A stretch of 64,000 bases of DNA from Candidatus Multivoradales bacterium (GTDB lineage Bacteria; Acidobacteriota; Thermoanaerobaculia; Multivoradales; J023): the NCBI GenBank assembly GCA_965248925.1, contig CBDFLE010000006.1:2432001-2496000 (forward strand), given 5' to 3'. This document shows positions 8,015 through 26,734 of this stretch, one piece after another. A program made the position numbers and the translations under genes. The number at the start of each line of letters is the position of its first letter. Position 1 is the stretch's first letter. The notes below the pieces were generated by a model. The model saw only the letters and a list, made by a program, of their open reading frames with translations. It did no database searches and had not been told where the DNA came from.

Positions 8015-11000
8015 ATGCGAATTAGACCTCTCAGCCTCATCCTTCTCGGCCTCTGCATCGCCCTGCCGCTGACCGCACAACTCCCCCCAAGCCATCAGCG
8101 CGGAGTGACCGCCGACACTGCCTACCAAATCGGCGACCTGGATCAGATAAATCTTTTCAACGGCAGCCTAACGGTATCTCTGCCGATCGGAATCACCTAC
8201 CCCGTCGGCCCGTCGCTGAGCTTCAGCCTGACCGCCTCGTACAGCTCCGGTGGCTGGGAGTACGATGAGAATCACCAATGTCAAGACATCAATCCACCCT
8301 TCGCGCTGCGTACCTACAGCCTGCCGATCCAGGATCTCAAGACGCAGGCCGGCTTCGGCTGGAGAGTCAGCCTCGGAGAGCTGATCGCACCACGTAACAG
8401 TCCGACGACAACGCCTGAGATTTACGTCGATCCAAGTGGCGGCGAGCACAGGTTTTATACCGAGCTGCATCCCGGCGGTTTTCCAGCGACACCGCAGCCC
8501 AGCACCTGGTTCACCAACGACAGTACCTATTTGCGTCTACGCAAGCGCAATCCGGGGGTGTGCGAGCTGCCGTCTGGCACCTTTGTCGATCAGAGCTGCT
8601 ACACGGTAGAATTTTCTGGCGGCGAGTTGCATGAGTTCCATAACTACGCCTCCGTCGGCGATCTCTGGCGCCTGACTCGGATGGAGGATCGCTTCGGCAA
8701 TTGGATCAATGTGCGCTATGCCAACGATGGCGACTGGACATTGACCGACAGCCAAGGGCGCACTCACACGGTGGACTTTGTCGGTGGCAGAGTCGCCACC
8801 GTGAGGCTCGAAGCCTTCGGCAGCCAAAGCAACTCGACCTTCCTCTTTCAGTACCGCACCGAGACCCTCGAACGGCAGTTCGGTTTCCGCCCCGGCTGCG
8901 TGCCGATAGCCGAGCACACCCTCACCACCCAGGTGCTCGACCGGGTGGTGTTGCCCGATGGTTCGTTCTACGAGATGGACTACCTGACCGTCGACAACCT
9001 GCTCTCGGGCGGCTTGTCGAAGCTGCGCCTGCCCACCGGCGGCGCCTACGGCTACGACTACCAGCTCTTCCCCTTCCAGACCCAGCTGGCCGACCTCTTC
9101 CACGCTCCCGATTGGGGCACGGTGGCGCGGGGAGTCAAGAGCAAGCATCTCTTCCTCGACGACGGCGACACCACCCCCTACGCCACCTGGAGCTACACCT
9201 ACGACACCGCAAATCCGCAAGCCCCCGGCGATCCGCTGGGCCACCCCTGCTTCCACTCGATGAAAGTGACTGATCCGCTGGGCTTCGAGACGGTGAGCTA
9301 TTTCTCCACCGTTGGCGCCAACAATCGCTGGTCCTACGGCCTGCCCTACACCTACTGCGATCCCATCAGTGGCAGCTTCTCAGAAGCCGGCCCCTTCCTT
9401 TCCCAAGAACTCTTCAACGCTGGCGGAACCAAGCTCCGCTCGATCTTCGTTGAGTTCGACAGCGATGGCCGCGACGCCGGCAACTACAACGAGAAGGCCC
9501 ACCGCTTGCGCTATCGCAAGGAGACCTTCCACGACGACGGCGGCAAGTTCCGCGAAGTCACCTTCTCGGACTTCGATGGCCTGGGCCACTTCCGCACCAT
9601 GACCACCGGCGGCAACTTCGGCGCTGCTGACGTCCGCACCAGCAGCACCACCTACAACGCCAACAGCGGCACCTACATCATCGCCAACCCCGACGACAGC
9701 TCGATTGATCCGGCAACCGATTTCGTGCTGCCAAGCCACAACGCACGCTGGATCTTGGAGACCTGGGACGAGCAGTCGGTGAGCGAAGGCGGGACCACCG
9801 AGAAAGCCGAGTTCTGCTTCAGTAGCACCACCGGCTTCCTCGAACGCCGCCGCCAGCTGGCTGGCAGCAGCCGTCAGAGCCGCGACGTGGTGAGCCTCCT
9901 CACCTCGACCGACGGCTTCGTCACCGGCGAGCGGGTCTATGGCGGCGACACCCAGAACCTCGGCACCGGCTCCTTGTGCGGCCTCGGCTTGTCCGGCCCT
10001 ACTTACCGCACCGACCACGTCTACGCCAGCGGCAGCCTGCGCAAGTCGACGGCGGTGGACTGCACAGGCACCGCGATCCTCACCCTGGCCGACTACGACA
10101 TCGACTCAGACACCGGCCTGGTGGCCACCAGCCGCGACGCGGCCGGCCTGGGCACCAGCTTCACTTACGATCGCTTGGGCCGCTTGACCGGCCAGCGCCC
10201 GGCCGAGCTGGGCTGGACCCAGTGGACCTACACCCTGCCCACCACCGCCAACCCCAGTCTTGCGCCCAAGCTCACCGAGCAACAGTGCCAGCCCTTCCAG
10301 ACCTCCTGCAGCGGCACCGATCTGATGAGCTTCCGCGAGCACCGCTACGACGGCCTCGGCCGGCGGCTGCAACAGACCGTGCGCATCCCCGTCGCCAACG
10401 CTGGCCAGACCGAGCTCTGGCATCGCTACACAACCTGGAACCCCCGTCACTGGAAGACGGACGAGTCGGTGTGGACCACCGCCTCCGCGGCCGGCGAGAG
10501 CCGGCGCACGACCTACATCGCCTACGATCGCTTCGGCCGCCCCGGCCGGGTCAAGCCGCCAGAACAGCCGGCGACCTTCTTCACCTACCAAGGCGACCGG
10601 GTGCAGACCCGGCGCTTCAAAGTGCAGCTGACCAGTGGCCAGCAAGACACCCACGTCACCGAGATCATGGACGGCCAGGGCCGTCTGGCCGAGGTCTGCG
10701 AGGGCAGTTCCGCCCCCTGGTCAGGGAGCTGTGGCGGTGGCGGTCTGCTGACTCGCTACTCATATGACGATGGTGGCAGACTGACCAAAGTGTGCCAGAA
10801 CCTCGCCGGCTCGACCTGCGGCCAGACCCGCTTGTTCGACTATGACGGTCGCGGCTTCCTACTCTCCGAGACCCATCCCGAGATCGGCCCCTCGGGCAAT
10901 GGCCGCAGCGATTACCGCTATGACGCCGGCGGCAACGCCACCTCCAAAGATCTGATCGGCAGCACCGCCTTCGATCTGAGCTTCGATTTCGACGCCGCCG

Positions 11001-13033
11001 GCCGACTGATCAGAGTCCTCGAATCGAGCAATGGCGTGGGGAGCACCCCGCGCTTGCAGAAGCAGTTCCGCTACGCCCGCGCCAACTCTGGCAGCGACCA
11101 CCGGGCCGGCAAGCTGGTGCAGACCGTGCGCCACAACTGGGTCGACATCCAGAGTCCCCTGGCCCCCGAGCCCGGCTTCCTCGACGTCAAGCTCTCCGAG
11201 AGCTTCCGCTACACCGGTCGTCAGGGGCTGATGTCGGAGAAGCAGACCCGCTACCAATTCTTCGCCGGCAACTACGCCTTCACCACCGGTTTCGTCTATG
11301 ACACCCAGGGCAATTTGTCGCAACTCGACTACCCCAGCTGCCAACACGCCGACGGCGGCTGCGCCACCAACGATCCACAGCGCACAGTGAATTTCAACTA
11401 CGAGAAGGGTATGCTCAGGTCCGTGCCTGGCTTCGCCAACAACCTCACCTACCAGAGCGGTGGCATGCTGCACCAGCTCACCCACGGCGATGGTGTGGTC
11501 GACACCCAGGAAATCAGCAGCTCCAACGGCCTCGCCCGGCCGCATCAGCTGACCACCTCCGCGGGCTGGAGCACCGACATCTTTTCCTACGACGGAGCCG
11601 GCAACATCTCGGCCATCGGCAACTTGGCCTACCGTTATGACCGCCTCGGCAGATTAATCTCTGGCCAGACCTCGGTCGGTGCCACCCTCTTCACCCAGAC
11701 CGCGAGCTACGACAATTTCGGCAATATCCAGCAGCTGTCGACGCCAGGTTTCTCAGCTCTCAACCTCAACCCCAGCGCCAGCACCAACCGCCTCGGCCTC
11801 TCAGGCGCCCAGTACGACGCTGCCGGCAACCTGACCGACATCACGATCGGCAGCGAGAGCTTCGACTACGCCTTCGATGGCGCCAACATGATGAAGCACT
11901 TGCGCTCGAACACCGATCAAGCGCGGGTCTACATCTACAACGCCAGCGACGAGCGGATCCTCACCTTCGACTGCTTCGGCGCCGGCGCGACCAGCACCTG
12001 CACCACCCAGCCCGCCAGTCTCACCTGGACCCTGCGCGGGCTCGGCAACGAAGTCCTGCGAGTCTACGATCAGCCGGCTGGCGGCGCCTTCAGCTGGAGT
12101 CGAGACTACGTTCATCGCGGCGGGCAGCCGCTAGCCACCATCGAGCCCAATGGCAGCGGCGGCGAGATGACGTCGCATCTCCACCTTGATCATTTGGGTA
12201 CGCCAAGGCAGATCACTCGTGGTAGCCAACAAGTGGCGTTGCACAACTACTACCCGTTTGGTCAGGAGGCGACCAGCGCGGCCCAGGACGAGGTCGTGCT
12301 GAAGTTTACCGGGCATGAGAGGGATAAGACCGGCACAGGCAGCCGTAGCGAGTTGGACTACATGCATGCTCGGCATTGTAGCCCGGTGGTGGGGCGATTC
12401 TTGAGTGTCGATCCGGCGAAATCTTCTGCGAAGGTGATGCCGCAGAGTTGGAACCGGTATAGCTATTCCTTGAACAGCCCTCTGAAATACTACGACCCGG
12501 ACGGACAAGTTCTTAGACTTGCTTCAGACACGAAGACCCAAAAGAAGGTGCTCCCGATGTTGATTGAAACCATGAGAAGACCTGGCGGCCGAGCATCGCT
12601 CGGGGGGCTTGCCAAGTCGGACATCGTTTTTATGATAGCGAATGAGGCGCTAAATAGACCAGTCGACATTATGAGCGTAAAAAGAGGAGGCTCAAGCAGA
12701 ATAACATTTGGCAAAAACAAGAACTTGAAAGTGAAGGACGGCAGGATTGTAAGCATTGACATCGTGCTTGACACTGCTGCAATTTCGGTTCATCCAGTCG
12801 CTACTAATGGAGTAGCTACCGTGGCGCATGAAGGGTCTCACGGGAACAGTATCGCCAGCGCTCAGGCTAGAGGGATTAGCCCGTATAGCGCATGGGCAGC
12901 AGGCGTCAATGGGGACAAGCCGAAAAGCGCCACTGGCCCGGCAGCTCAGGACGGGGCCGCAGTTGCTGCTGAGAGACGGGACCTTACTGCCGTAGAGGCA
13001 GAAGCCCTTCTAATGCAAATCATTCTTCCATAA
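8015..13033 (+). CDS. Rhs/YD-repeat polymorphic toxin with N-terminal signal peptide and C-terminal HExxH metallopeptidase-like domain
   Basis: MRIRPLSLILLGLCIALPLTAQ signal; YD repeats; core HLDHLGTPR..NYYPFG..KFTGHERD..LDYMHAR..GRFLSVDP..NSPLKYYDPDG; tip contains VAHEGSH; GC drops after DPDG. Confidence 0.93.
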   Translation: MRIRPLSLILLGLCIALPLTAQLPPSHQRGVTADTAYQIGDLDQINLFNGSLTVSLPIGITYPVGPSLSFSLTASYSSGGWEYDENHQCQDINPPFALRTYSLPIQDLKTQAGFGWRVSLGELIAPRNSPTTTPEIYVDPSGGEHRFYTELHPGGFPATPQPSTWFTNDSTYLRLRKRNPGVCELPSGTFVDQSCYTVEFSGGELHEFHNYASVGDLWRLTRMEDRFGNWINVRYANDGDWTLTDSQGRTHTVDFVGGRVATVRLEAFGSQSNSTFLFQYRTETLERQFGFRPGCVPIAEHTLTTQVLDRVVLPDGSFYEMDYLTVDNLLSGGLSKLRLPTGGAYGYDYQLFPFQTQLADLFHAPDWGTVARGVKSKHLFLDDGDTTPYATWSYTYDTANPQAPGDPLGHPCFHSMKVTDPLGFETVSYFSTVGANNRWSYGLPYTYCDPISGSFSEAGPFLSQELFNAGGTKLRSIFVEFDSDGRDAGNYNEKAHRLRYRKETFHDDGGKFREVTFSDFDGLGHFRTMTTGGNFGAADVRTSSTTYNANSGTYIIANPDDSSIDPATDFVLPSHNARWILETWDEQSVSEGGTTEKAEFCFSSTTGFLERRRQLAGSSRQSRDVVSLLTSTDGFVTGERVYGGDTQNLGTGSLCGLGLSGPTYRTDHVYASGSLRKSTAVDCTGTAILTLADYDIDSDTGLVATSRDAAGLGTSFTYDRLGRLTGQRPAELGWTQWTYTLPTTANPSLAPKLTEQQCQPFQTSCSGTDLMSFREHRYDGLGRRLQQTVRIPVANAGQTELWHRYTTWNPRHWKTDESVWTTASAAGESRRTTYIAYDRFGRPGRVKPPEQPATFFTYQGDRVQTRRFKVQLTSGQQDTHVTEIMDGQGRLAEVCEGSSAPWSGSCGGGGLLTRYSYDDGGRLTKVCQNLAGSTCGQTRLFDYDGRGFLLSETHPEIGPSGNGRSDYRYDAGGNATSKDLIGSTAFDLSFDFDAAGRLIRVLESSNGVGSTPRLQKQFRYARANSGSDHRAGKLVQTVRHNWVDIQSPLAPEPGFLDVKLSESFRYTGRQGLMSEKQTRYQFFAGNYAFTTGFVYDTQGNLSQLDYPSCQHADGGCATNDPQRTVNFNYEKGMLRSVPGFANNLTYQSGGMLHQLTHGDGVVDTQEISSSNGLARPHQLTTSAGWSTDIFSYDGAGNISAIGNLAYRYDRLGRLISGQTSVGATLFTQTASYDNFGNIQQLSTPGFSALNLNPSASTNRLGLSGAQYDAAGNLTDITIGSESFDYAFDGANMMKHLRSNTDQARVYIYNASDERILTFDCFGAGATSTCTTQPASLTWTLRGLGNEVLRVYDQPAGGAFSWSRDYVHRGGQPLATIEPNGSGGEMTSHLHLDHLGTPRQITRGSQQVALHNYYPFGQEATSAAQDEVVLKFTGHERDKTGTGSRSELDYMHARHCSPVVGRFLSVDPAKSSAKVMPQSWNRYSYSLNSPLKYYDPDGQVLRLASDTKTQKKVLPMLIETMRRPGGRASLGGLAKSDIVFMIANEALNRPVDIMSVKRGGSSRITFGKNKNLKVKDGRIVSIDIVLDTAAISVHPVATNGVATVAHEGSHGNSIASAQARGISPYSAWAAGVNGDKPKSATGPAAQDGAAVAAERRDLTAVEAEALLMQIILP

Positions 13034-13059
13034 ACTGAGGCACAGGACCTGGGGTAAAC

Positions 13060-13671
13060 ATGAGTGATGAACTCTGTCGATTTCTTTCTGGCTCTGCAGT
13101 GCTCTTGCTTTGCTTGGCTTGCACAACAGATCGATATTCAACCAAAGCGAGAACGGCTGGCCGGGGGCCGCTCGAGATCTACCAGGAGCAAGATCATCCC
13201 TTGGGCGACGAGACGGCGTCCGTTAACGGGCCAAGGGCCGACTCTGAGCAAGGGAAAAACATTCAGGCGATTGGGCTCGAGCTCACGTCCTGCTATGGCT
13301 ATTGCCCAGAGTTCACGGCCCTCTTCTGCGCAGATGGTTCTGCGTGGTATTGCGGCAGAGCAAACACGAATCCTTTGGGGTGCCACTCTGGATCTGTGAC
13401 GTTAGACGAATATCGTATAGTTGCCGCTGCTATGGACGATATTGGATATTTTGAGATGAATCATACTTATGTTGCATTAGAGACCGACGAGTCTTCGGTG
13501 TTGGTGTTTGGTAAACGCTACAACAAGATAAAAATGATTCGAGACTACGCAGAGAGTGGTCCTCCCCGCCTGTGGTTGTTGGAATTCCTTCTCGGTGCGA
13601 TGGTCGATCGAATCCACTGGAGTCCGAGTGATGTCACAGGATTAGATTTGGAGCGTTGTTCTTCGCCGTAG
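13060..13671 (+). CDS. lipoprotein, putative cognate immunity (DUF6438-like)
   Basis: lipobox LLLCLAC; IGLELTSCYGYCPEFTALFCADGSAWYCG resembles DUF6438; directly after toxin; paralog at 19298. Confidence 0.75.
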   Translation: MSDELCRFLSGSAVLLLCLACTTDRYSTKARTAGRGPLEIYQEQDHPLGDETASVNGPRADSEQGKNIQAIGLELTSCYGYCPEFTALFCADGSAWYCGRANTNPLGCHSGSVTLDEYRIVAAAMDDIGYFEMNHTYVALETDESSVLVFGKRYNKIKMIRDYAESGPPRLWLLEFLLGAMVDRIHWSPSDVTGLDLERCSSP

Positions 13672-13980
13672 TTGGTTGGAACCGCTGGTGCTAGAGGCGG
13701 AGTCGATGGCGTGCCCGACTCTCGTGCCGTCAGACTACGACAGCGGGCTCAAAGCCCATAGGTGTATTCGGCCCGCCCCGAGGTGTTCGATCCTTCCAAC
13801 TCTTTGTTCTTGGCCGTGAGGCACCTCGTCCCTTACCTGGTCAAGACCAGGAGATCATAGGGCCCTCGGCCGATTCAACAGATGCAGGTCTCAGCGCACA
13901 ACCCGCCCGACGCCTCGAATCCCAGCTCAAAACGGAGTGAGAGCGGGCGCCTGTTTTCCTGTGGCCTTGGTTATACCTGG

Positions 13981-15366
13981 TACGACGATTTCGGCAACAT
14001 CCAGCAGCTATCAACACCCGGTTTCGCGGCTCTCAACCTCAACCCCAGCGCCACCACCAACCGCCTCGGCCTCTCAGGCGCTCGATACGACGCAGCCGGC
14101 AACTTGACCGACATCACAATCGGCAGCGAGAGCTTCGACTACGCCTTCGACGGCGCCACCATGATGAAGCATTTGCGCTCGAACACCGATCAAGCGCGGG
14201 TCTTCATCTACAACGCCAGCGACGAGCGGATCCTCACCTTCGACTGCTTCGGCCCCGGCGCCACCAGCACCTGCACCACCCAGCCCGCCAGCCTCACCTG
14301 GACCCTGCGTGGCTTACAGAACGAGGTTCTGCGAGTCTACGATCAGCCAGCTGGAGGTTCATTCGGCTGGACCCGAGACTATGTGCACCGAGGCGGCCAG
14401 ACGCTAGCCACCATCGAGCCCGACGGCAGCGGAGGTGAGCTGACTTCGCACCTGCACCTTGATCACCTGGGCACCCCCCTGCAGATCACGCGTGGTGGTC
14501 AGCAGGTGGCATTGCACAACTACTACCCCTTTGGTCAAGAGGCGACCAGCGCGGGGGCTGACGAGATTCAGCTGAAGTTTACCGGGCATGAGCGGGACAA
14601 GACGGGGACGGGAGTGAGGAGCGAGCTGGACTACATGCATGCTCGGTACTGTAGCCCGGTGCTAGGGCGGTTCCTGAGCGTTGATCCGGCGAAGTCTTCC
14701 GTTTTGACCCAGAGCACAACCTGGAACCGGTACTCCTACGTTTCCAACAATCCGCTGCGCTACAATGATCCTTCGGGTCTACGCCAGAACCCAGTAACTG
14801 GAAGAAAGGGAATCAGTCCAAGGCCCGCCAGCGCCGTTCTTGGGAGAATCAGGAGCAATGACAACAATCGCAGAGTTGGACTCTTTGGAATGACGCGCCA
14901 TTTCGCAGATGGGACAGAGAGATTTCACCCTGGCATCGACATCAATGCACCAGCCGGAACCCGGTTGTTTGCGGCAGAAGGGGGGACAGTCAGCCGTCGG
15001 CGAAATGCTCTCGCAGGTAACCAGATCGTAATCAAGACTTCTTCTGGAACCCAGTTGTTCTACTCTCATCTTGATAGCTTTGCGCCCGGACTGAAGAGCG
15101 GAGCAACAGTAGTTGAGGGTGAAATCATCGGAACAGCAGGGACCACAGGGAACGCAATGGGTATTCTGAGTCAAGAGGAGCATCTACACCTCACTGTTAA
15201 GAATCCAAAAGGCGTGAGGGTAGATCCGCTAATCTGGCTCAATGACCCTTTTGCAGCCGACCCCAGAATCCACTCAGAACCAGCATCCACACCATGTCAA
15301 TGCAGTTCAGGTCCGCCTAATGTTCCGGGTATGCTGATACAGCTCTATCTCAGAGGGCCATCGTGA
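13981..15366 (+). CDS. orphan Rhs-CT cassette 1: partial core + M23 peptidase toxin
   Basis: DNA homology to main Rhs from ~11708; after NDPSG: HPGIDINAP, YSHL, HLHL M23/LytM zinc motifs; no proper N-terminus. Confidence 0.87.
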   Translation, partial: YDDFGNIQQLSTPGFAALNLNPSATTNRLGLSGARYDAAGNLTDITIGSESFDYAFDGATMMKHLRSNTDQARVFIYNASDERILTFDCFGPGATSTCTTQPASLTWTLRGLQNEVLRVYDQPAGGSFGWTRDYVHRGGQTLATIEPDGSGGELTSHLHLDHLGTPLQITRGGQQVALHNYYPFGQEATSAGADEIQLKFTGHERDKTGTGVRSELDYMHARYCSPVLGRFLSVDPAKSSVLTQSTTWNRYSYVSNNPLRYNDPSGLRQNPVTGRKGISPRPASAVLGRIRSNDNNRRVGLFGMTRHFADGTERFHPGIDINAPAGTRLFAAEGGTVSRRRNALAGNQIVIKTSSGTQLFYSHLDSFAPGLKSGATVVEGEIIGTAGTTGNAMGILSQEEHLHLTVKNPKGVRVDPLIWLNDPFAADPRIHSEPASTPCQCSSGPPNVPGMLIQLYLRGPS

Positions 15367-15959
15367 ATCTTGTAATAGCAATCGTCCTTGCGTCCTTTAG
15401 TTGCTCGCAGCTCACGGGCAATTCGACCCTGCCAAACTTTCTGGAGATCGTTCAGCTCTCTGAGATGCTACTCGTTCCTCCCAATCGTCTGATCTTCGAA
15501 CTGGGCTCGCCGGAGGCGGTTTTCCTCGAAGGTGCAGACTCAGAAGGGCCACCAACACCTCAAGACGGTCTAGAGCTTCGCTACTCGATCATTCTCCGTG
15601 TTGGGAAACACTATCCGGCCACGGCGTGGTTTCACCTCGACGGACAATCTTTCCTTGTGAGGGGGATCCATCTTGATTTCCCTGGCGCAAAGCCCGAACT
15701 GGCGGAGCTGGAGCTGGCAGCTGGCGGCCCGAAGCGCCTAGTTGAGCACGTGGTGATCTGGGATGAGGGTGAGCTGGATGGGTGGTTAAGCAAATGCCAC
15801 CATTCCGGAGGCCCCATTCAAAGCTGGGTTTTTCAGGATCTTGGACTTCAAATTCGCCTAGAAGACAGTATTGGCTCAGAGAAGTCGGCCGTGGGAGGGA
15901 TCTCGTTCGTGGCGGAGATCAAGTCTGGCGATCGCAGCTTTCCACCGTGCAAAGAATAA
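15363..15959 (+). CDS. putative lipoprotein immunity to M23 toxin
   Basis: GTGA overlap with toxin stop; lipobox-like LASFSC; paralog at 25561. Confidence 0.75.
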   Translation: MNLVIAIVLASFSCSQLTGNSTLPNFLEIVQLSEMLLVPPNRLIFELGSPEAVFLEGADSEGPPTPQDGLELRYSIILRVGKHYPATAWFHLDGQSFLVRGIHLDFPGAKPELAELELAAGGPKRLVEHVVIWDEGELDGWLSKCHHSGGPIQSWVFQDLGLQIRLEDSIGSEKSAVGGISFVAEIKSGDRSFPPCKE

Positions 15960-16044
15960 TCGATTTTTTCCCATCTGCTAGCCACTACGGGGCCCAGCAG
16001 TACCGGTGGCGAAAAGATTTCCCTCTTGATGTAGTTGCTTGTAC

Positions 16045-17935
16045 CGACATTCAGAATCCCCTGGCCCCCGAGCCCGGCTCCCTCGATGTCAAACTCTCCG
16101 AGAGCTTCCGCTACACCGGTCGCCAGGGGCTGATGTCGGAGAAGCAGACTCGCTACCAATTCTTCGCCGGCAACTACGCCTTCACCACCGGCTTCGCCTT
16201 CGACACCCAGGGCAATCTGTCACAGCTCGATTACCCCAGCTGTCAGCACGCCGACGGTGGCTGCGCCACCAACGATCCGCAGCGCACGGTGAATTTCAAC
16301 TACGAGAAGGGTATGCTGAGGTCCGTGCCTGGATTCGCCAACAACCTCACCTACCAGAGCGGTGGCATGCTGCACCAGCTCACCCACGGCGATGGTGTGG
16401 TCGACACCCAAGAAGTCAGCAGCTCCAACGGCCTCGCCCGGCCGCACCAGCTGACCACCTCCGCGGGCTGGAGCACCGACATCTTTTCCTACGACGGAGC
16501 CGGCAACATCTCGGCCATCGGCAACTTGGCCTACCGTTATGACCGCCTCGGCAGATTAATCTCTGGCCAGACCTCGGTCGGTGCCACCCTCTTCACCCAG
16601 ACCGCGAGCTTCGACAATTTCGGCAATATCCAGCAGCTGTCGACGCCAGGTTTCTCAGCTCTCAACCTCAACCCCAGCGCCACCACTAACCGCCTCGGCC
16701 TCTCAGGCGCCCAGTACGACGCTGCCGGCAATCTGACCGACATCACAATCGGCAGCGAGAGCTTCGATTATGCCTTCGACGGTGCCAACATGATGAAGCA
16801 CCTGCGCTCGAACACCGATCAAGCACGGGTCTACATCTACAACGCAGAGGACGAGCGGATCCTCACCTTCGACTGCTTCGGCCCCGGCGCCACCAGCACC
16901 TGCACCACCCAACCAGCCAGCCTCACCTGGACTTTGCGCGGGCTCGGCAACGAGGTCCTGCGGGTCTACGATCAGCCAGCTGGCGGCGCCTTCAGCTGGA
17001 GCCGAGATTATGTGCACCGAGGCGGCCAGCCGCTAGCCACCATCGAGCCCGATGGCAGCGGAGGTGAGCTGACGTCGCACCTGCACCTTGATCATTTGGG
17101 TACACCTCGGCAGATCACCCGAGGCGGACAGCAGGTGGCGCTCCACAACTACTACCCGTTTGGTCAGGAAGCGACCAGCGCGGGTGCTGACGAGATCCAG
17201 CTGAAATTCACTGGTCATGAGCGGGACAAGACCGGGACCGGGGCAAGGAGCGAGCTGGACTACATGCATGCGCGGCATTGCAGCCCGGTAGTAGGGAGGT
17301 TCCTGAGTGTTGATCCAGTAGTTGGAGCTACACGGCAACCTCAGTCCTGGAACCGCTATGCCTACGTGACTAACAATCCGCTGAACCTCGTCGACCCTAA
17401 CGGTCTCGAAGCCAAATGCGTTACAACTACCCACGAAGATGGTTCTCAGGATATCGTCTGCGGCGAAAGGATTGAGGTGGTCGATGGCACGGTGGAAGAG
17501 GTCGACTCGGAAGAGCCTGCCCAGGGTTTTCCGACCCTTGTTGCATTTATCGAAGTTGCCAGTCTCCCTGCCGTTACACCCCTCTCAACTCGAGATCGAA
17601 TTCTGAGTTCTGTGCCGATTGATGGTATGGACTATGCTCGCTGTGTTCGCAAGAATAGGGCTAAACCAGTAGCAGCTCTCGTTGCCCTGGGCTCCGGAGT
17701 ACCAAAGCGCTTGGTTCCGCCGTTTCGCGTTCCAAATCCCAAGCAACCTTTGACCAATCCTGCCAGGGCCTTCGTGGGCTCTCCAATTAAGCGAGCATTC
17801 CCCAGTTCACCACTTGCCAGAAGAGTCTCTGGAAGGATCAGGATCGGCGGCAGGTTCGTTTCCAGGATCGCCACGCCCTTAACTCTCGCAGAGGGCTACT
17901 ACGACATTGCAGTCTTGGGCGCCTGCTCGTTTTGA
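16045..17935 (+). CDS. orphan Rhs-CT cassette 2: partial core + unknown toxin tip
   Basis: homology to main Rhs from 11143; core ends NNPLNLVDPNG; tip is acidic then basic/hydrophobic. Confidence 0.85.
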
Positions 17936-17960
17936 CATACAAGAACTGAGGAGAATTCCT

Positions 17961-18401: not shown

Positions 18402-18434
18402 TCGAATCACATATCTTCAGTAGCTTACGCCACG

Positions 18435-19282
18435 TTGATCATTCGGGCACACCGCGGCAGATCACCCGAGGTGGACAGCAGGTGGCGTTGCACAACTACT
18501 ACCCGTTTGGTCAAGAAGCCACCAGCGCCGGGCAAGATGAGGTCGGGCTGAAGTTCACTGGGCATGAGCGGGACAAGACCGGGACTGGGGTGCGGAGTGA
18601 GCTGGATTACATGCATGCTCGGCATTGCAGCCCGGTGGTGGGGCGGTTCGTGAGTGTGGATCCGGCGAGATCGGCAGAATCCAGGGCGCCACAAAGTTGG
18701 AATCGATATAGCTACGGGCTGAATAGCCCTCTCAAGTATACTGATCCAGATGGCCGGGTTCTGAAGATAGCAAAGGACAGCAAGACGCAAAGGCGCATCG
18801 TCCCTGTGCTCGTGAGAACACTGAGAAGACCCTCGGGCCGTAAACTTGTCTCGGATCTCGCGAAGTCCGATATAGTCTTCACATTTTCTGAAGGTAAATT
18901 GAATAAGCCCGTGGACATCATCAGTTTTAGAAGAGGCCGGGCCGGCTCACTACGATTCGGTGTCAATCAGAACATGAAGCATAGCAATGGGAGGATCGTG
19001 AGCATCGATATTGTCCTGGATTCAGCGGCTATATCTGCGCATCCTATCGACACGACAGGCGTGACCACTGCAGCTCATGAATCATCTCACGGGAGCAGTA
19101 TTGCTGCCGGCCAAGCCAGTGGGTTAGTTTGGCACAAAGCCTGGGCCGAGGGGGTCAGAGGTGATCAGCCCGACAGCGCAACCGGACCAGCATCCCAAGA
19201 AGCGGCATCAGTGTTAAACGAACGTCGGGATATCAGCGCCAAGGATGCGAAGGCACTTTTGATGCAGTTCCTAACGCCGTAG
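18435..19282 (+). CDS. orphan Rhs-CT cassette 3: short core + HExxH peptidase tip paralogous to main toxin
   Basis: NSPLKYTDPDG then alignable tip (LAKSDIVF, GRIVSIDIVLD, AAHESSHG, SATGPA). Confidence 0.87.
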
Positions 19283-19297
19283 CAGAAAGGAGGAGAG

Positions 19298-19906
19298 ATG
19301 CAATACGTCATGTGCCGGACCCTACTTGTGTGCTTGCTTGCTCTTGTTATTTTTGGATGTTCTCATGGGGCGAAGCGGGATGTTATCTCTGGAGGAACTG
19401 GACCTCTTGATACCTATCATCTTGAACGCCATCCATGGGGAGACGACGCTACGATATTTGGAGGACCAAGGTCAGAATCTCTGCAAGGTCAAGGGGTGGA
19501 GGGGGTTGGCTTGGAGATGACCTCCTGCTACGGATTTTGCCCTCAGTTTACAGTAATATTCTGCGTGGATGGCACGGCCTGGTACTGTGGCAGAGCAAAC
19601 ACGGAGCCGCTAGGGTGCTACACTGGCAAGGTCCCGATCTCGGAGTTTAAAATCGTTGCTGCTGCGATGGAAGATGTCGGATTCTTCGAACTCGATCATA
19701 CTTACGCTGACCTCAAGACCGACGATTCTTCCGCGCTGGTTGCAGGGCTCAAAGAGGGAAGGGTCGTTGTAGTTAGAGACTATGCGGAGAGCGCACCTCC
19801 TCGGCTGTGGCTGCTTGAGTTTCTTCTTGGTTCAATGGTCGATCGTGTCACTTGGGATCCTATCGATGCAAAGACTGTTGACTTCAACCAATGCGACTCG
19901 GGTTAG
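19298..19906 (+). CDS. lipoprotein immunity, paralog of 13060..13671
   Basis: AGGAGG RBS; lipobox VIFGC; shared SCYG.CP.FT..FC.DG.AWYCGRANT and RDYAES.PPRLWLLEFLLG. Confidence 0.8.
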   Translation: MQYVMCRTLLVCLLALVIFGCSHGAKRDVISGGTGPLDTYHLERHPWGDDATIFGGPRSESLQGQGVEGVGLEMTSCYGFCPQFTVIFCVDGTAWYCGRANTEPLGCYTGKVPISEFKIVAAAMEDVGFFELDHTYADLKTDDSSALVAGLKEGRVVVVRDYAESAPPRLWLLEFLLGSMVDRVTWDPIDAKTVDFNQCDSG

Positions 19907-20004: not shown

Positions 20005-21746
20005 ACGCCACCAACGATCCGCAGCGCACGGTGAATTTCAACTACGAGAAGGGTATGCTCAGGTCCGTGCCTGGATTCGCCAACAACCTCACCTACCAGA
20101 GCGGCGACATGCTGCATCAGCTCACCCACAGCGATGGTGTGGTCGACACCCAACAAGTCAGCAGCTCCAACGGCCTAGCCAGGCCGCACCAGCTGACCAC
20201 CTCCGCGGGCTGGAGCAGCGGTAAGTTCTCCTACGACGGAGCCGGCAACATCTCGGCCATCGGCAACCTGGCCTACCGTTATGACCGCCTCGGCCGATTA
20301 CGCTCCGGCCAGACCTCCGTCGGCGCCACCCTCTTCACCCAGACCGCGAGCTACGACAATTTCGGCAACATCCAGCAGCTGTCGACGCCAGGTTTCTCAG
20401 CTCTCAACCTCAACCCCAGCGCCACCACCAACCGCTTCGGCCTCTCAGGCGCCCAGTACGACGCTGCCGGCAACCTGACCGACATCACGATCGGCAGCGA
20501 GAGCTTCGACTACGCCTTCGATGGCGCCAACATGATGAAGCACTTGCGCTCGAACACCGATCAAGCGCGGGTCTACATCTACAACGCCAGCGACGAGCGG
20601 ATCCTCACCTTCGACTGCTTCGGCGCCGGCGCGACCAGCACCTGCACCACCCAGCCCGCCAGTCTCACCTGGACCCTGCGCGGGCTCGGCAACGAAGTCC
20701 TGCGAGTCTACGATCAGCCGGCTGGCGGCGCCTTCAGCTGGAGTCGAGACTACGTCCATCGCGGCGGGCAACCGCTAGCCACCATCGAGCCCGACGGCAG
20801 CGGCGGCGAGATGACCTCACATCTCCATCTTGATCATTTGGGCACCCCCCGGCAGATCACCCGTGGTGGTCAGCAGGTTGCGTTGCACAACTACTACCCG
20901 TTTGGTCAGGAAGCGACCAGCGCGGCCCAGGACGAGGTCGTGCTGAAGTTTACCGGGCATGAGCGGGACAAGACGGGGACGGGGGCGAGGAGCGAGCTGG
21001 ACTACATGCATGCTCGGCATTGTAGTCCGGTGGTGGGGCGGTTCTTGAGTGTCGATCCGGCGAAGTCTGCTAAGACTGGCACACCACAAGGTTGGAATCG
21101 ATATATCTATGGTGCCAACAGCCCAATGACCTTCGTAGATTCAGACGGACTGGCACCAACTGCTGCCCAAGTGGCCTCGAGTGCCAGTGAAACGGCTAAG
21201 AAGCACATAGTTGCCGCTGCTGGGTTGGGGGGAGGATTCCACCCTGGGTTCGCCAATTTCATTGTTGGCGCTACTCTCGATGTTTTTTCGATGGGCGACG
21301 CGACCGGCGAGGCGATCGGGACAGGTGAGGGCCTTGCGGGTGCCGTAGTCTCTGACACGCTGAGAGTGGCTGCTCTTGCGGGAGGTCTTGGAGCGACCGG
21401 CAGGGCCCTTTCCCGAGGCGCAGCATCAGCGCGTACATTCCTAGGGGGCAGGCTCGTCGCCAATGAAGTATTTGTTGGGGAGATCGGCACCGCCAGAAAA
21501 CCTGTTGAGATATTTGCGAAAGTCACATTCGAAGGAAAGACTCTTCGCCTGGACAAATTGGCTATCTTCCCAAAAGGAGCTGAAAGCCTTCAGTTGGGTC
21601 CACGGCAAATCTTGGCAGCAAGGAAAGCCCTTGAAGCAGAGGCAAGGCGACTAGGGTTTACGAAAATACGGCTCACGGTGAGCCGCCTAAGCGGCGCCAA
21701 CCCAGGAAGAACTTTCGACTTAGTCATTGACCTAGTGAGGCAATAA
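20005..21746 (+). CDS. orphan Rhs-CT cassette 4: partial core + Gly/Ala-rich hydrophobic linker + unknown toxin domain
   Basis: homology to main Rhs from 11361/2; core ends NSPMTFVDSDG; tip ends GFTKIRLTVSRLSGANPGRTFDLVIDL. Confidence 0.87.
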
Positions 21747-21759
21747 GAGGCGTGTTAAA

Positions 21760-21978
21760 ATGAACTACGAGAGATTACTAACAAGGCTTCGTAGCGAAGG
21801 CAATTCCAAGATTCAATCGATGAAGATACTTGTTGAAACAACAGATATTTCCATTGACGAGGTGAAGAATGTTGTTCACAGAAGTAGGACTTGGAAGGAT
21901 GTTGAGTCTCAAGATGATAACTTTCATGACGCGCTGGAAAGATCGAGCGATTTCTTAGCTCGGGTATCCACCGACTAG
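21760..21978 (+). CDS. small cytoplasmic putative immunity protein
   Basis: 72 aa directly after CT4, GAGG RBS, low GC, no signal peptide; decayed homolog at 23709. Confidence 0.72.
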   Translation: MNYERLLTRLRSEGNSKIQSMKILVETTDISIDEVKNVVHRSRTWKDVESQDDNFHDALERSSDFLARVSTD

Positions 21979-22024
21979 GTGCTGAGAAGTGCTGCCGCCG
22001 AGAGCGTGCCACCCACCTCGGCAA

Positions 22025-23048
22025 GACCCTGCGTGGGCTCGGCAACGAAATCCTGCGAGTCTACGATCAGCCAGCTGGCGGCGCATTCGGCTGGGCCCGA
22101 GACTATGTTCATCGAGGCGCACAGCTGCTAGCCACCATCGAGCCCGACGGCAGCGGCGGCGAGATGACCTCGCACCTGCACCTTGATCATTTGGGTACGC
22201 CTCGGCAGATCACTCGGGGTGGTCAGCAGGTGGCGTTGCACAGCTACTACCCCTTTGGTCAGGAGGCGACCAGCGCGGGTGCTGATGAGATTCAGCTTAA
22301 GTTCACCGGCCATGAGCGAGACAAGACCGGAACCGGGGCGAGGAGCGAGCTGGACTATATGCACGCACGGTATTGCAGTCCGGTGCTGGGGCGGTTCTTG
22401 AGTGTCGATCCTGTAGCCAAGGGTGAGGAGAGCAGACCACAGAGCTGGAATCTGTTTTCATACGCAGGGAATAGTCCGACAAACAGACTCGATCCCGATG
22501 GTAGAAAGGATCGAAGGACAAGCCAAGAAGTAGTGCTGACGGAGGACGCGGACGTTCAGATTGCGATTTTAGAGATTCTTAGGCAGACGCTCTTAGATAG
22601 GCCGGTGCTCCAGCGTCAAGAGGCTGGCGTAGTAGTCACAGAGGATGGTCCAAATGACTTCGGGCTAGACACGGGTGGAGTAAAGACAGATGGGAACCTT
22701 ACTCAAATTACCTTTCGTCTTCGCAAGAAAGCAGACGGCGCGATCGTTGGATTGAATAACAATCGGGTAGCTGCAACGATCCATAGTCATGTAGGAACAG
22801 CTAGAGTGGTCATAGATGGGCAGAGAAAAACGTTGGCCGGAGGGATTCCCAGCCCAGCAGATCGAAGTCAAGCCAAGGCGATCGGCGTGCCAGTTCTGAT
22901 TCTCAACGGGGAGAGGAGTATCATCAAGGTCGAGTCTGTTGGAAACAGCACGCGGTCTACGGTGATCCTCTCTGGTCGAGACATGAGGAGCTACCTACAA
23001 CGAGCGCGTGCCGCTGCCGCACCGCCAACTGGAGACCTAAATGATTGA
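22025..23048 (+). CDS. orphan Rhs-CT cassette 5: partial core (5' part frameshifted) + JAB/MPN-like toxin
   Basis: core ends NSPTNRLDPDG; QEAGVVV..ATIHSH..PSPAD = JAMM-like E..HSH..SxxD. Confidence 0.8.
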
Positions 23049-23544
23049 TTCGAGAATTGTCTTTCTGGCTCTAGCTCTAGTGGCTTTCCAGTCTTGGCCT
23101 TGCTTTCTCTCCGCGACCGAGGAAGAGAGCATCGGCGACCCAGGGTGCCCTGTCAGGTTCGGTCGAGTTTATAGAAATGAGGGCGCCACCATACTGGAAG
23201 TATTACCTTCAGATCTGCCAGAAACAATCGAGATTCTCGACCAGCCAGATGGTGCCGCGATCTTCAGAGCAGAGTCCGAAGACCCCACCGCAGTCTACGG
23301 CACCTTTTTCCTAGAACCACCAGTTGCAACCAAGACAAGCTTCTTTCCGAGATCAGGACTGAGCGCAGCGACTTGGGTCACGGTAACGTCAAATATTGGT
23401 CTTGTGGAACAGATTCCAGCAGGGATCTACCGACTGAAATTACAATATATAGGTCGTCATGAAAATGGAAGCAAGATCAAAGTTTGCCTTGCAATCTCCC
23501 CGACATTTGTCGAAGACGAGGAGTCGTTATATACGTTTCACTGA
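23041..23544 (+). CDS. secreted putative immunity protein
   Basis: overlaps toxin stop; hydrophobic N-terminal signal IVFLALALVAFQSW. Confidence 0.7.
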   Translation: MIDSRIVFLALALVAFQSWPCFLSATEEESIGDPGCPVRFGRVYRNEGATILEVLPSDLPETIEILDQPDGAAIFRAESEDPTAVYGTFFLEPPVATKTSFFPRSGLSAATWVTVTSNIGLVEQIPAGIYRLKLQYIGRHENGSKIKVCLAISPTFVEDEESLYTFH

Positions 23545-23589
23545 AGCGGGGTGGCAGCAAGCACGAAGACGGAGATGCCGATCGCGGGT

Positions 23590-23885: not shown

Positions 23886-24141
23886 AAACCGGTGTAGTTT
23901 GGCCACTTCGCTCTTTTTTCCCAAGAACGGACTATGGTCTACGGCCATAGCAAACGCTGGCGGGCGGCCTCAATGACGAAGGTGGATCAGAGGCCGGAGC
24001 ATCGAAAAGTCCAAGATTTTCGGCGTCTTGGGAACTCTGAAAGGAAGAATTCGCGCCTGACCAACTTGCATCGAGCTGAACGAACTGAACCGAGCATGTA
24101 TGGGAGGGTCCAATCTTGGCTCGCCAGTTGCGTAGAAACCC

Positions 24142-25561
24142 CTCAGTCGGTGCCACCCTCTTCACCCAGACCGCGAGCTACGACAATTTCGGCAACATCC
24201 AGCAGCTGTCGACGCCAGGTTTCTCAGCTCTCAACCTCAACCCCAGCGCCACCACCAACCGCCTCGGCCTCTCAGGCGCCCAGTACGACGCTGCCGGCAA
24301 CCTGACCGACATCACGATCGGCAGCGAGAGCTTCGACTACGCCTTCGATGGCGCCAACATGATGAAGCACTTGCGCTCGAACACCGATCAAGCGCGGGTC
24401 TACATCTACAACGCCAGCGACGAGCGGATCCTCACCTTCGACTGCTTCGGCGCCGGCGCGACCAGCACCTGCACCACCCAGCCCGCCAGTCTCACCTGGA
24501 CCCTGCGCGGGCTCGGCAACGAAGTCCTGCGAGTCTACGATCAGCCGGCTGGCGGCGCCTTCAGCTGGAGTCGAGACTACGTCCATCGCGGCGGGCAACC
24601 GCTAGCCACTATCGAGCCCGATGGCAACGGCGGCGAGATGACCTCACAGTTGCACCTTGATCATTTGGGCACTCCCCGGCAGATCACGCGTGGTGGTCAG
24701 CAGGTGGCATTGCACAACTATTACCCGTTTGGTCAAGAGGCGACCAGCGCGGGGGCTGACGAGATTCAGCTGAAGTTTACCGGGCATGAGCGGGACAAGA
24801 CGGGGACGGGAGTGAGGAGCGAGCTGGACTACATGCATGCTCGGTACTGTAGCCCGGTGCTAGGGCGGTTCCTGAGCGTTGATCCGGCGAAGTCTTCCGT
24901 TTTGACCCAGAGCACAACCTGGAACCGGTACTCCTACGTTTCCAACAATCCGCTGCGCTACAATGATCCTTCGGGTCTACGCCAGAACCCAGTGACTGGA
25001 GGCAGGGGGATCAACTCAAAACCTGCCAACGGCGTTTTTGGAAGGATCAGGAGAAATAGCTCAAACCCGAGAATCGGTCTCTTCGGGAGAACACGGCGTT
25101 TCGCAAGTGGGAAACCTCGCCCTCACTCTGGCCTCGACATCAACGCGCCTGTTGGAACCCGCTTGTTCGCGGCAGAGGGGGGAACAGTCAGTCTCCGAAC
25201 GAATGTTCTTGCTGGTAACCAGCTCGTGATCAGGACATCCTCGGGTACCCAATTGTTCTATTCTCATCTCAATGGCTTCGCACCAGGATTGAAGAACGGA
25301 GCTACCGTGCTCGAGGGTGAAGTCATCGGAGCGTCAGGCACCACGGGAAACGCAATGGGTATAGCAACTTCGGAGGAGCATCTACATTTCACAGTCAAGG
25401 GTCCTGGTGGCGTAAGAGTAGATCCGTTGATCTGGCTCAATGACCCATACGAGGCCGATCCTAGAATCTCTTCAGAGCCACCGCCTGCACCATGTCAATG
25501 CAGTACAAACCCTCCAGACCTTCAAGGAGCGCTGATCCAGCTCTATCTCCAGGAGCCATAG
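24142..25561 (+). CDS. orphan Rhs-CT cassette 6: partial core + M23 peptidase toxin (paralog of cassette 1)
   Basis: HSGLDINAP, YSHL, HLHF motifs; homology to main Rhs from ~11670. Confidence 0.87.
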
Positions 25562-26157
25562 TGAGACATTTGGCAATAATCGTCCTCGCGGCCTTTGGCT
25601 GCTCACAAATCTTGGGCCAGTCTACGTCGCCGACTAGTTTGGACATCCATCAACTCTCAGAATTGTTACTTGTACCTCCCAACCGACTGGTCTACGAGCT
25701 GGGTTCCCCAGAGTTGGTTTTTCTCGATGGAGCTGACTCAGAAGGCCCTCCAACGCCTCATGATGGTCTTGAATTTCGCTACTCGATTGTTCTCTGGGCA
25801 AAGAGGCCCTATCCGGCCACGGTGTGGGTTCACCTTGACGCAAACTCCTTTCTTGTGAAGGCGATCAACCTTGAATTCTCCGGCCCAAGACCCGAGTTAG
25901 CAGAGTTGGAGACAGCAGCTGATGCACCAAAGCGCATAGTAGAGCATGTGATGATCTGGGATGAAGGCGAGCTGGAGGGCTGGCTGAGCGAGTGCCACCA
26001 TCCTGGCGGCCCAATTCAGAGCTGGGTGTTTCAGGATCTCGGGCTTCAGGTTCTGTTGGAAGAGGGTGCTGGCTCTGAGAAGCCGGTCGTAGACCTACTC
26101 TCGTTCTCGGCGCAGATCAAGTCTGGCGGACTTAGCTTTCCACCCTGCGACGACTAA
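25561..26157 (+). CDS. lipoprotein immunity, paralog of 15363..15959
   Basis: GTG overlapping toxin TAG; lipobox LAAFGC; shared LLVPPNRL.(F/Y)ELGSPE, GGPIQSWVFQDLGLQ. Confidence 0.8.
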   Translation: MRHLAIIVLAAFGCSQILGQSTSPTSLDIHQLSELLLVPPNRLVYELGSPELVFLDGADSEGPPTPHDGLEFRYSIVLWAKRPYPATVWVHLDANSFLVKAINLEFSGPRPELAELETAADAPKRIVEHVMIWDEGELEGWLSECHHPGGPIQSWVFQDLGLQVLLEEGAGSEKPVVDLLSFSAQIKSGGLSFPPCDD

Positions 26158-26186
26158 GGGCCCGCGAAAAGACAACTTCCGAGTAC

Positions 26187-26404
26187 CGACATCCAGAATC
26201 CCCTGGCCCCCGAGCCCGGCTCCCTCGACGTCAAGCTCTCAGAGAGCTTCCGCTACACCGGTCGTCAGGGCCTGATGTCGGAGAAGCAGACCCGCTATCA
26301 GTTCTTCGCCGGCAACTACGCCTTCACCACTGGCTTTGGCTATGACACCCAGGGCAACTTGTCGCAACTCGACTACCCCGACTGCCAGCAGGCCGATGGC
26401 GGCT
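26187..26404 (+). pseudogene. truncated Rhs core fragment (cassette 7, no toxin tip)
   Basis: matches main Rhs 11143-11360 then homology stops abruptly. Confidence 0.85.
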
Positions 26405-26431
26405 TAGGGGTTCTTCGGAGGGTCAAACGAA

Positions 26432-26734
26432 GTGAAACGACTTATCCTCGTCATAACACTGCTCGCGTTTTCACTTGTAGCGTATGCCGAGCACACACCG
26501 GTTGCGGAGTGGCTGAAGACATACAACAACTCGGTCGATCAGCCCTTCTTGACTGCGGTCGAGCTGAGGGCAGAGCAAGCGCTGACTATTCTCGAACGGC
26601 TGGGTATCGAGCCCGGTAAGGCTCAGACACCTAACTCTACGTCGATACGGGCGACTGCCGATGCCTGGGAAACAACGTTCCAATCTCCCTTTCGTCGAGC
26701 TGGATGGCCAGCGGCCAGCGGAAACCGCTGGTGA
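26432..26734 (+). CDS. small secreted protein, possible orphan immunity (may be truncated)
   Basis: GGAGG RBS, GTG start, signal peptide KRLILVITLLAFSLVAYA. Confidence 0.55.
   Translation: MKRLILVITLLAFSLVAYAEHTPVAEWLKTYNNSVDQPFLTAVELRAEQALTILERLGIEPGKAQTPNSTSIRATADAWETTFQSPFRRAGWPAASGNRW

Follow-up and report, generated by a model that had tools for sequence, protein, structure and literature searches.

A Probable Sec-Type Rhs Polymorphic-Toxin Locus with Six Orphan Cassettes and an Insertion-Split Accessory Gene in a Multivoradales Bacterium

The window analyzed here is a 64,000-nucleotide stretch of the genome of Candidatus Multivoradales bacterium (contig CBDFLE010000006.1, 2,432,001–2,496,000; coordinates below are window positions unless a contig is named). 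It carries an accessory gene, a gene for a 1672-aa Rhs protein with a leader-like N-terminus, a putative immunity gene, and six silent cassettes, each composed of a core end, a tip, and a putative immunity gene, in this order and all on the + strand. We consider it likely that this locus is one of many paralogous Rhs polymorphic-toxin loci that act independently of a type VI secretion system (T6SS) in a diderm host, by the following mechanism. The Sec pathway would export the Rhs protein to the periplasm, and a disulfide-stabilized shell would fold around a tip of ~175 aa, which would be cut off at a DPxG boundary. After release or display at the surface, the tip would act in the envelope of neighboring bacteria; tips of the M23 type would cut the cell wall, zincin tips an envelope protein or peptide, and lipoprotein or secreted partners would neutralize them in kin cells. 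The orphan cassettes would form a reserve, from which recombination within 0.3–1.3 kb of shared core could move one onto the expressed gene. The β-sandwich accessory protein encoded upstream would associate physically with the shell and most likely serve adhesion or targeting. Three features are new here: a small secreted β-sandwich accessory that the family carries directly upstream, its splitting in this locus by an insertion sequence (IS), and a set of metallo-enzyme tips that, in a genome with 85 Rhs cores, occur in this locus only.

The Rhs protein and its orphan cassettes

The Rhs gene (8015–13033, +) encodes in succession a leader of ~21 residues, the shell, the Rhs-associated core (Rhs_assc_core, residues 1412–1498), and the tip. 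The N-terminus, MRIRPLSLILLGLCIALPLTAQ, has a basic n-region, a hydrophobic core, and an LTA|Q site, and its best 19-residue Kyte–Doolittle window (residues 6–24) reaches 1.94. The protein also matches RHS_repeat (E = 2.4e-16) and YD_repeat_2x, in agreement with the initial annotation of the stretch, which had proposed a full-length Rhs protein with a signal peptide. The same annotation had named a T6SS-type N-terminus (prePAAR or transmembrane domain) as the finding that would speak against it. This was not borne out, as the leader runs directly into the conserved start of the shell (HPNxxRGF..VNLFNGNL). No PAAR match was found in the protein at E ≤ 0.01. The domain search returned no SLH or other anchor or wall-binding domain, no SpvB and no β-propeller match, and there is no lipobox. 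The many cysteine pairs that had been pointed out are present: among 21 cysteines, 20 of them beyond the leader, six close pairs can be recognized (183/195, 758/765, 895/906, 927/935, 1109/1116, and 1320/1329), and C1109 and C1116 are kept in at least 90% of 50 homologues. A 50-row profile of the protein matched the solved structures of Tse5, RhsP, teneurin-like proteins, and YenC2, over its C-terminal third only.

The host is a soil-type bacterium whose relatives are labelled Thermoanaerobaculia (Acidobacteriota). Its genome of ~8 Mb is 96.9% complete and not closed, with contigs of 0.62–0.64 GC. Five Omp85 matches identify it as a diderm. It contains 85 Rhs_assc_core domains and 17 full-length paralogues of the Rhs family of the window. 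The first 600 residues of the Rhs protein matched 150 proteins at E ≤ 1e-3, and those bearing a name are mostly labelled Thermoanaerobaculia or Acidobacteriota. By a crude test, 116 of 120 homologues among the matches listed have a leader-like N-terminus; of the misses, one is a failure of the regular expression and two are truncated sequences. In a sample of the phylum, 10 of 301 genomes carry the family, nine of them among the 26 other genomes of the class and none among the 274 outside it; in a sample of the class, the count is 46 of 121. A search of genome contigs for related loci with the Rhs N-terminus returned only three distant loci of Xanthomonadales type. No paper was found by a literature search pairing Thermoanaerobaculia with Rhs.

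Downstream of the main gene, the 3' end of the core recurs, so that the locus holds seven copies of it. Rhs_assc_core (TIGR03696) is matched above its cut-off in the main gene and in all six orphans, and in the seven open reading frames (ORFs) the core is closed by a WNRY..P..DPxG boundary, beyond which lie tips of 175–198 aa. Orphan 1 (13981–15366, +; ORF 13882–15366) shares 719 bp with the main core at 86% identity and ends in a Peptidase_M23 tip (14779–15366). Orphan 2 (16045–17935, +; ORF 15782–17935) shares 1272 bp at 92%, and its tip (17405–17935) contains four cysteines. Orphan 3 (18430–19282, +; ORF 18482–19282) has a tip with an HExxH motif (HESSH; 18755–19282). Orphan 4 (20006–21746, +; ORF 20031–21746) shares 1105 bp at 93%; its tip (21150–21746) consists of a Gly-rich stretch and then an uncharacterized domain. 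Orphan 5 (22025–23048, +; ORF 22164–23048) carries a tip (22503–23048) with an E..HSH..SPAD motif, a JAB-like lead, and orphan 6 (24141–25561, +; ORF 24116–25561) a second Peptidase_M23 tip (24977–25561). At 26187–26404 (+) lies a 218-bp core remnant without a tip, 93% identical to positions 11143–11360 of the main gene. All six orphan cassettes of the initial annotation are confirmed by the core match, and each has its own downstream gene. The tips were rightly described as low in GC (0.52–0.56, vs. 0.58–0.62 in the preceding 600 bp of core). The description of the cores as near-identical holds for the 5' 300-bp stretches (93–99%) and fails for the whole spans of homology with the main gene, which are 337–1272 bp long and 79–93% identical.

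Further Rhs-bearing ORFs lie elsewhere in the genome. Contigs C4 and C5 contain giant open frames of 2500–5100 aa with Rhs cores (for example, C4:161449, C5:35098, and C5:2327704–2355518), which are counted among the 85 core matches. At least 12 core-plus-tip ORFs of 351–367 aa, located at C5:921076–974450 and C6:3503207–3519638, share the leader-like start MRQAAKGRSTWTMALGLVVALLAV and recur at a spacing of ~7.7 kb; given this common N-terminus, these orphan-sized cassettes seem to bear an export signal of their own. In two paralogous Rhs genes (C4:77912–83062 and C6:3491606–3496768), the 5' ends look rearranged: the upstream frame of both opens with a sequence resembling the leader of the accessory (...NQRKGEEMHRK...), and one copy has an internal TGA.

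Predicted tip enzymes and their partner genes

The tips of orphans 1 and 6 match Peptidase_M23 above its cut-off (E = 2.2e-19 and 2.8e-17). They are 72% identical, both contain the zinc-ligand motifs HxxxD (HPGID and HSGLD) and HxH (HLH), and they match peptidoglycan endopeptidases of NCBIfam.

The tip of the main gene (12506–13033, +; 175 aa), with the sequence HEGSH at 12827–12841 and a predicted zincin-like fold, is 57% identical to that of orphan 3. It belongs to no Pfam or NCBIfam family, and the best match of the orphan 3 tip is Peptidase_M91 at E = 0.17, with none in NCBIfam. A protein atlas search with the main tip gave no usable match. A profile built from the two tips and searched against 1.84 billion representatives retrieved 72 proteins (E ≤ 1e-3). 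Most of these begin with an Rhs core-end sequence, and 62 of them contain an HExxH string. In an alignment of 35 of the 72 members with the two tips of the window (37 rows), the invariant positions are D89, G102, E109, H112, and A165, and conservation reaches at least 90% at H108 and D137. The AlphaFold2 model of the main tip computed from this alignment has a mean predicted local distance difference test score (pLDDT) of 97.4 and places the HExxH motif within the helix formed by residues 103–121; it replaces an earlier model based on a 2-row alignment (pLDDT 31.6). Two results tell against an easy assignment of this fold. Foldseek found no match to the Protein Data Bank (PDB) at E ≤ 1e-3, the weak ones being mostly to zincins, and the best Z score of VIA-align against 48,161 chains, 7.4 over 126 residues (root-mean-square deviation 3.3), is middling, as typical best chance values are 7–8. 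There were 20 matches with Z ≥ 5, nearly all to HExxH metallopeptidases, including the aspzincins deuterolysin and AsaP1, and the top 50 matches are almost all zincins. We infer from the fold score and the motif jointly, the Z score alone being insufficient, that the HExxH tips are zincin-like peptidases, with D137 as a possible third ligand. Judged by its distribution among sequenced proteins, this tip family is rare, appears restricted to Rhs proteins, and lies outside the families described in Pfam and NCBIfam.

The motif of the orphan 5 tip reads E40..H94-S-H96..S117-P-A-D120, and a language-model search placed the tip near the DUF4329, Toxin-JAB1, and Prok-JAB clusters (0.92–0.95). This has to be set against the absence of any hidden Markov model match for JAB in Pfam or NCBIfam and of any sequence match in the PDB; a word-index search returned only the tip itself. 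JAB-like therefore stays a lead. Of the five zinc-type tips announced by the initial annotation, the two M23 and the two HExxH tips, the latter with a motif conserved in their family, are upheld, and the fifth stands at the level of a motif and a language-model hit. The proposed bias toward metallo-enzymes describes the window locus and does not extend to the genome. Among 40 core-end tips found by regular expression, the HExxH, M23, JAB-like, and orphan 4 types are confined to this locus and occur nowhere else; 17 of the 40 form one unrelated cluster. The tips of orphans 2 and 4 have no family match in Pfam or NCBIfam, and the orphan 2 type is present in three ORFs of the genome.

Each of the seven tips is directly followed by an ORF of its own, which is positional evidence for a partner. 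Partner i0 (13060–13671, +), presumably the immunity protein for the main tip, matches DUF6438 (E = 5e-15) and has a lipobox-like leader (hydrophobicity 1.74). Partner i3 of orphan 3 (19298–19906, +) is a second DUF6438 protein (E = 7e-18), likewise with a lipobox-like leader and 50% identical to i0. Partners i1, i2, i5, and i6 have no recognizable family. Among them, i1 (15363–15959, +; 198 aa) has a leader-like N-terminus and is 68% identical to i6 (25492–26157, +; 221 aa), which by its hydrophobicity has a lipobox-like leader, and i5 (23041–23544, +; 167 aa) also begins with a leader-like stretch (1.94). Partner i2 (17907–18401, +; 164 aa) has one weak hydrophobic segment (residues 22–40, 1.43), and for i4 (21760–21978, +; 72 aa, GC 0.42) hydrophobicity indicates no leader. 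An N-terminal hydrophobic window of at least 1.65 was therefore found in five of the seven partners (i0, i1, i3, i5, and i6), four of which have a cysteine at a lipobox-like place. These five belong to the tips annotated as zinc-dependent; the earlier statement that their partners are exported is consistent with these values, and an action of the tips in the target envelope fits five exported-looking partners. Tips and partners have diverged together: the main and orphan 3 tips are 57% identical and their partners 50%, and the orphan 1 and 6 tips 72% and their partners 68%. DUF6438 is a candidate lipoprotein immunity partner of the HExxH tips; no paper on DUF6438 (PF20033) was found.

The targets might be prey or eukaryotic cells instead of competitors, the supposed immunity genes being otherwise employed. 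The nearest folds of the zincin tip are indeed proteases acting on eukaryotic proteins, and the part of PMC13018210 available to us describes teneurin-like relatives as enriched in predatory and social bacteria. However, the M23 tips belong to a family that cuts bacterial peptidoglycan (NCBIfam), and a small gene next to each tip, diverging in step with it, is typical of self-protection from an antibacterial toxin. We regard targets of this other kind as quite improbable.

The upstream accessory gene and its insertion sequence

The gene immediately upstream of rhs is in two pieces and encodes a secreted protein with a Big_9/cadherin-like immunoglobulin (Ig) domain. Its 5' part (4995–5302, +) matches positions 2–62 of the 89 positions of the Big_9 profile (E = 3.2e-5). 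The ORF has a hydrophobic leader at residues 22–40 and, as it stands, continues into the IS as far as 5327. The 3' part of the gene (7831–8002, +) covers profile positions 68–89, carries the C-terminal tail specific to the accessory, and ends with a TAG codon that precedes the Rhs ATG by 12 nt. The two parts are separated by an IS of ~2532 bp (5302–7831, +) with a Transposase_29 ORF (5412–7805, E = 2.5e-76). The intact paralogue L007 aligns by blastn to both flanks, its positions 292–575 to 5022–5302 (91%) and its positions 570–1001 to 7831–8262 (94%), and the 6-bp overlap of the two alignments suggests a target duplication. The genome contains at least 25 copies of this IS at 99.8–100% identity, and the depth of the contig rises to ~450 over it vs. 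~21 over the unique flank. The accessory gene of the window locus is a fresh IS insertion mutant. Neither the split gene, nor the IS within it, nor the core remnant and the second IS at the right end of the array had been mentioned in the initial annotation. A read-assembled contig joins 5296 to 7831 without the IS. We rejected it as an empty-site allele: with a depth of 62 vs. 22 over the unique flank and four differences, it most likely represents paralogous intact accessory copies.

The array is flanked by two different ISs, the Transposase_29 IS on the left and an IS21-type element on the right. The latter (27205–29537, −) marks the right boundary of the array. It consists of IstB (27205–28203; IstB_IS21, E = 3.5e-76) and IstA (27963–29537), with additional matches to Mu-transpos_C_2 and rve. 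An IS21 (IstA/IstB) element also adjoins another Rhs locus of the genome.

These insertions raise the question of whether the locus is still active. It could be a decaying, largely silent copy, cut off by the IS from its native promoter and accessory, in which the immunity genes are kept as an island against the toxins of kin, the active loci being the intact paralogues elsewhere in the genome. This would fit an accessory gene interrupted by an IS with 100% identity to other copies and with a terminator-like hairpin (5364–5383) just inside its left end, the core remnant and IS21 at the right end, and the absence of a leader or a full shell from all six orphans; in addition, 10 other loci retain an accessory 13–15 bp upstream. 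However, the main ORF of 1672 aa is intact, with its leader and core. The transposase gene is co-directional with rhs, and a search of the interval up to the rhs start gave no terminator-like site, so read-through is possible, and rhs may now be transcribed in this way. Moreover, the IS insertion looks very recent, and decay is therefore not far advanced. On balance we find a silent copy somewhat doubtful; as a polymorphic-toxin locus of the kind proposed above, the window locus probably works without its accessory, or works poorly.

Other full-length Rhs loci of the genome keep an intact accessory. A Big_9 ORF of 141–176 aa lies 13–15 bp upstream on the same strand at 10 of the 17 loci. Intact Big_9 accessories begin with a leader, have five conserved cysteines, and match a Big_9/cadherin-like domain at E = 1e-11 to 2e-12, and their specific C-terminal tail is confined to 12 accessory copies in the genome. 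Another C-terminal tail, of a strand-tag type that might serve sorting (PVEL..F[ST][VI][DE]), is present on five ORFs, none of which encodes an Rhs, accessory, or partner protein. In relatives, the upstream position is occupied by a leader-bearing protein of ~215 aa without Pfam match, which we named AccL. In the class sample, all 34 genomes with AccL also carry the Rhs family, and AccL is absent from the 75 Rhs-free genomes; of 76 AccL matches, 60 immediately precede a co-directional Rhs N-terminus. Because related genomes are not independent, these counts make the association look stronger than it is. The host genome itself pairs AccL with a third Rhs subfamily. In one genome, both proteins are naturally fused in a single frame of 1938 aa (leader, AccL, linker, Rhs), and two large multi-Ig proteins contain AccL-like modules flanked by TIG and Calx-beta domains. 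A word-index search with the AccL profile returned six proteins, all unnamed or "hypothetical." A complex prediction for the accessory of an intact paralogue (residues 27–142) with residues 23–890 of the Rhs protein, that is, the N-terminal half of the shell only, scored 0.00 and gave no verdict.

An ORF of ~220–230 aa is located upstream of AccL in three of 15 loci of relatives examined (L016, L022, and L033, in G070 and G040). It ends in ...GEILVLLSLQ, has a Gly/Ser/Thr-rich repetitive N-terminal part in one copy, and matches no Pfam family.

A more ambitious interpretation is that the Sec-exported Rhs protein and a docking β-sandwich accessory of calcium-binding type form a two-component system for delivery across two outer membranes. 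The accessory, sometimes fused to the shell and replaced in the host genome by a different fold, would supply the step performed elsewhere by T6SS, TcA, or CdiA, either by holding the shell at the surface of the producer or by binding an outer-membrane receptor on the target for entry of the tip. We consider this unlikely on the evidence at hand; if true, Rhs proteins would pass two outer membranes in a way not yet described.

Several observations weigh against the mechanism that we favor. Leaders of all proteins were assessed from hydrophobicity, charge, and AxA-like sites only. Partners i2 and i4 lack clear leaders, so some tips may act outside the periplasm. Precomputed Pfam matches indicate nuclease and deaminase tips in relatives, and for these the cytoplasm must be reached. 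Comparison of AccL with the Big_9 accessory by hhalign gave a probability of 0.3%, with no detectable relation, and a common role of the two is therefore inferred from position. Outside the host genome, 60 of 86 Rhs matches have AccL upstream and 26 do not. Finally, in the comparable MafA/MafB case, the available text of PMC4287609 states that deletion of mafA did not stop secretion.

Left of the accessory gene, an ORF at 2312–4033 (+) encodes a 573-aa regulator combining an AraC-type HTH_18 domain (Pfam, E = 4e-13) with TPR. Homologues of this protein occur near three of the 17 full-length Rhs loci, which makes it a possible dedicated regulator. Further left, a 404-aa ORF (888–2105, −) has weak matches to multihaem cytochromes c (Cytochrom_CIII, E = 1.8e-5).

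Export route and relation to known systems

The genome search supports independence from T6SS: TssC and Hcp have no match in the 96.9%-complete host genome, TssC was found in none of the nine family-carrying relatives tested (each 98–100% complete), and the Rhs protein has no PAAR match. Delivery by a contractile machine, either a T6SS that escaped the assembly or the phage-tail-like system of the genome, would find support in three PAAR matches on contig C5, one of them 15 kb from a phage-type sheath gene, and in the genome not being closed. Yet these genes are on a different contig, the Rhs protein contains no PAAR or VgrG part, and a cleavable Sec leader would put it in the periplasm, beyond the step of cytoplasmic loading. 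Contractile delivery is close to refuted, and the C5 genes fit a phage-tail-like element unrelated to the Rhs locus. The region concerned (C5:1884485–1900369) possibly encodes an extracellular contractile injection system or a prophage tail.

The passage across the outer membrane, which the initial annotation had left unexplained, is still so. The genome encodes three secretins, two of which adjoin T2SSE-type ATPases. None reaches the GspD cut-off (best score 211.8 bits vs. 351) and no GspG match was found in the genome. The Rhs protein might not be released at all but stay in the envelope of the producer, periplasmic, bound to the wall, or tethered at the surface by the accessory; its action would then require contact, lysis, or the shedding of vesicles. 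Action of this kind has been proposed for WapA, for MafB in vesicles, and for outer-membrane exchange toxins. In the five SLH-bearing homologues examined, this domain, which binds wall polymers, is inserted inside the shell in every case. The lack of a GspG match and of a secretin at the GspD cut-off points in the same direction, as do accessory families made of adhesin-type β-sandwich modules, and release in outer-membrane vesicles is proposed for MafB in the consulted portion of PMC4287609. On the other side, the Rhs protein of the window itself has no SLH or other anchor domain and no lipobox, and the two secretin-plus-ATPase clusters could export it. Retention is possible, although we lean toward the release or surface display assumed in the mechanism above.

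The kind of locus described here, Sec-dependent, T6SS-independent, and equipped with an orphan library, has been catalogued since 2012, and it is otherwise an ordinary Rhs orphan array. The comparisons below rest on the available parts of the papers cited. Zhang et al. (PMC3482391, Table 1) include "T2SS/Sec-dependent: signal peptide; repeats RHS" among the standard classes of trafficking. This class shares with the window locus RHS repeats, a C-terminal tip that varies, an adjacent immunity gene, and orphan cassettes. A signal peptide, to which the leader of the window protein would correspond, is its sole trafficking signal at the N-terminus; HExxH metallopeptidase and JAB tips on Rhs scaffolds are listed as well. 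The work is a catalogue and, in those parts, gives no mechanism for crossing the outer membrane, nor did we find in them the upstream accessories, the class-wide family, or the DUF6438 partner. The designation of the locus as an undescribed antagonism system is overstated; MafB and teneurin-like proteins already pose the same question in print. Our literature search on T6SS-independent Rhs proteins with signal peptides returned no paper on such a system, and the portion of the Kielkopf preprint that was accessible contains nothing on leader-bearing Rhs.

Bacillus subtilis WapA is a Sec-dependent contact-dependent toxin with Rhs/YD repeats. WapA of Streptococcus suis (PMC12704120) is a toxin of the same kind, exported by a signal peptide, as the Rhs protein of the window would be, and like the latter it is independent of T6SS and has an Rhs/YD shell, a polymorphic tip, and a downstream immunity gene. 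It differs in belonging to monoderm hosts and in being anchored to the wall, whereas the protein described here has a diderm host and no wall-binding domain. With Omp85 in this host, an outer membrane has to be crossed twice, in the producer and in the target, unlike in the case of WapA.

MafA–MafB–MafI of Neisseria (PMC4287609), like the window locus, belong to a diderm without T6SS in which the outer-membrane route is not known. Secretion of MafB depends on its signal peptide, and PilQ is dispensable. An adhesin-like gene, mafA, lies directly upstream within the operon, and orphan tip and immunity cassettes lie downstream. MafA–MafB is the nearest parallel to the pairing of accessory and Rhs. 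The parallel is functional only, with no sequence relationship: MafB has a DUF1020 N-terminal domain and no Rhs shell, the Rhs protein of the window has no DUF1020 match, and, unlike the lipoprotein MafA, the accessories described here bear leaders of signal peptidase I type.

Among solved structures, the best sequence matches are the T6SS Rhs effectors Tse5 (8cp6) and RhsP (8h8a and 8h8b; E = 1e-31 to 6e-29). They have in common with the window protein the C-terminal shell, the core, and the DPxG boundary, and align to it only from profile position ~1100 onward. Unlike these effectors, the window protein has no PAAR, prePAAR, or VgrG part, and no T6SS was found in its genome. Teneurin-like proteins (PMC13018210; 9pt5 and 9ifo) resemble the window protein as YD-shell toxins that come with immunity genes and bear a Sec leader, to which its leader-like N-terminus would correspond. 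Acidobacteriota are one of several phyla from which they are reported, and their delivery is stated as not known. Their structures match our profile at E = 2e-23 over the C-terminal shell only (positions 933 onward), and their TTR, FN-plug, NHL, and TIP parts were not detected in the window protein by sequence search. The BC components of Tc toxins (YenC2; 4igl and 9c4k) likewise form an Rhs cocoon around a cleaved tip and depend on a separate partner protein, TcA, to target and translocate it. The accessories here are β-sandwich proteins of 115–220 aa, not pore formers of 280 kDa.

How polymorphic toxins with signal peptides leave diderm bacteria and enter others is an open question in print, for MafB (2015) as for teneurin-like proteins (2026). 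The present locus also defines an HExxH tip family and a candidate role for DUF6438. For that question, this Rhs family offers a handle: a conserved, coupled accessory, one natural fusion of the two proteins, one natural case in which a different fold replaces the accessory, a genome with many paralogous loci, and, in the window locus, a natural insertion mutant of the accessory.

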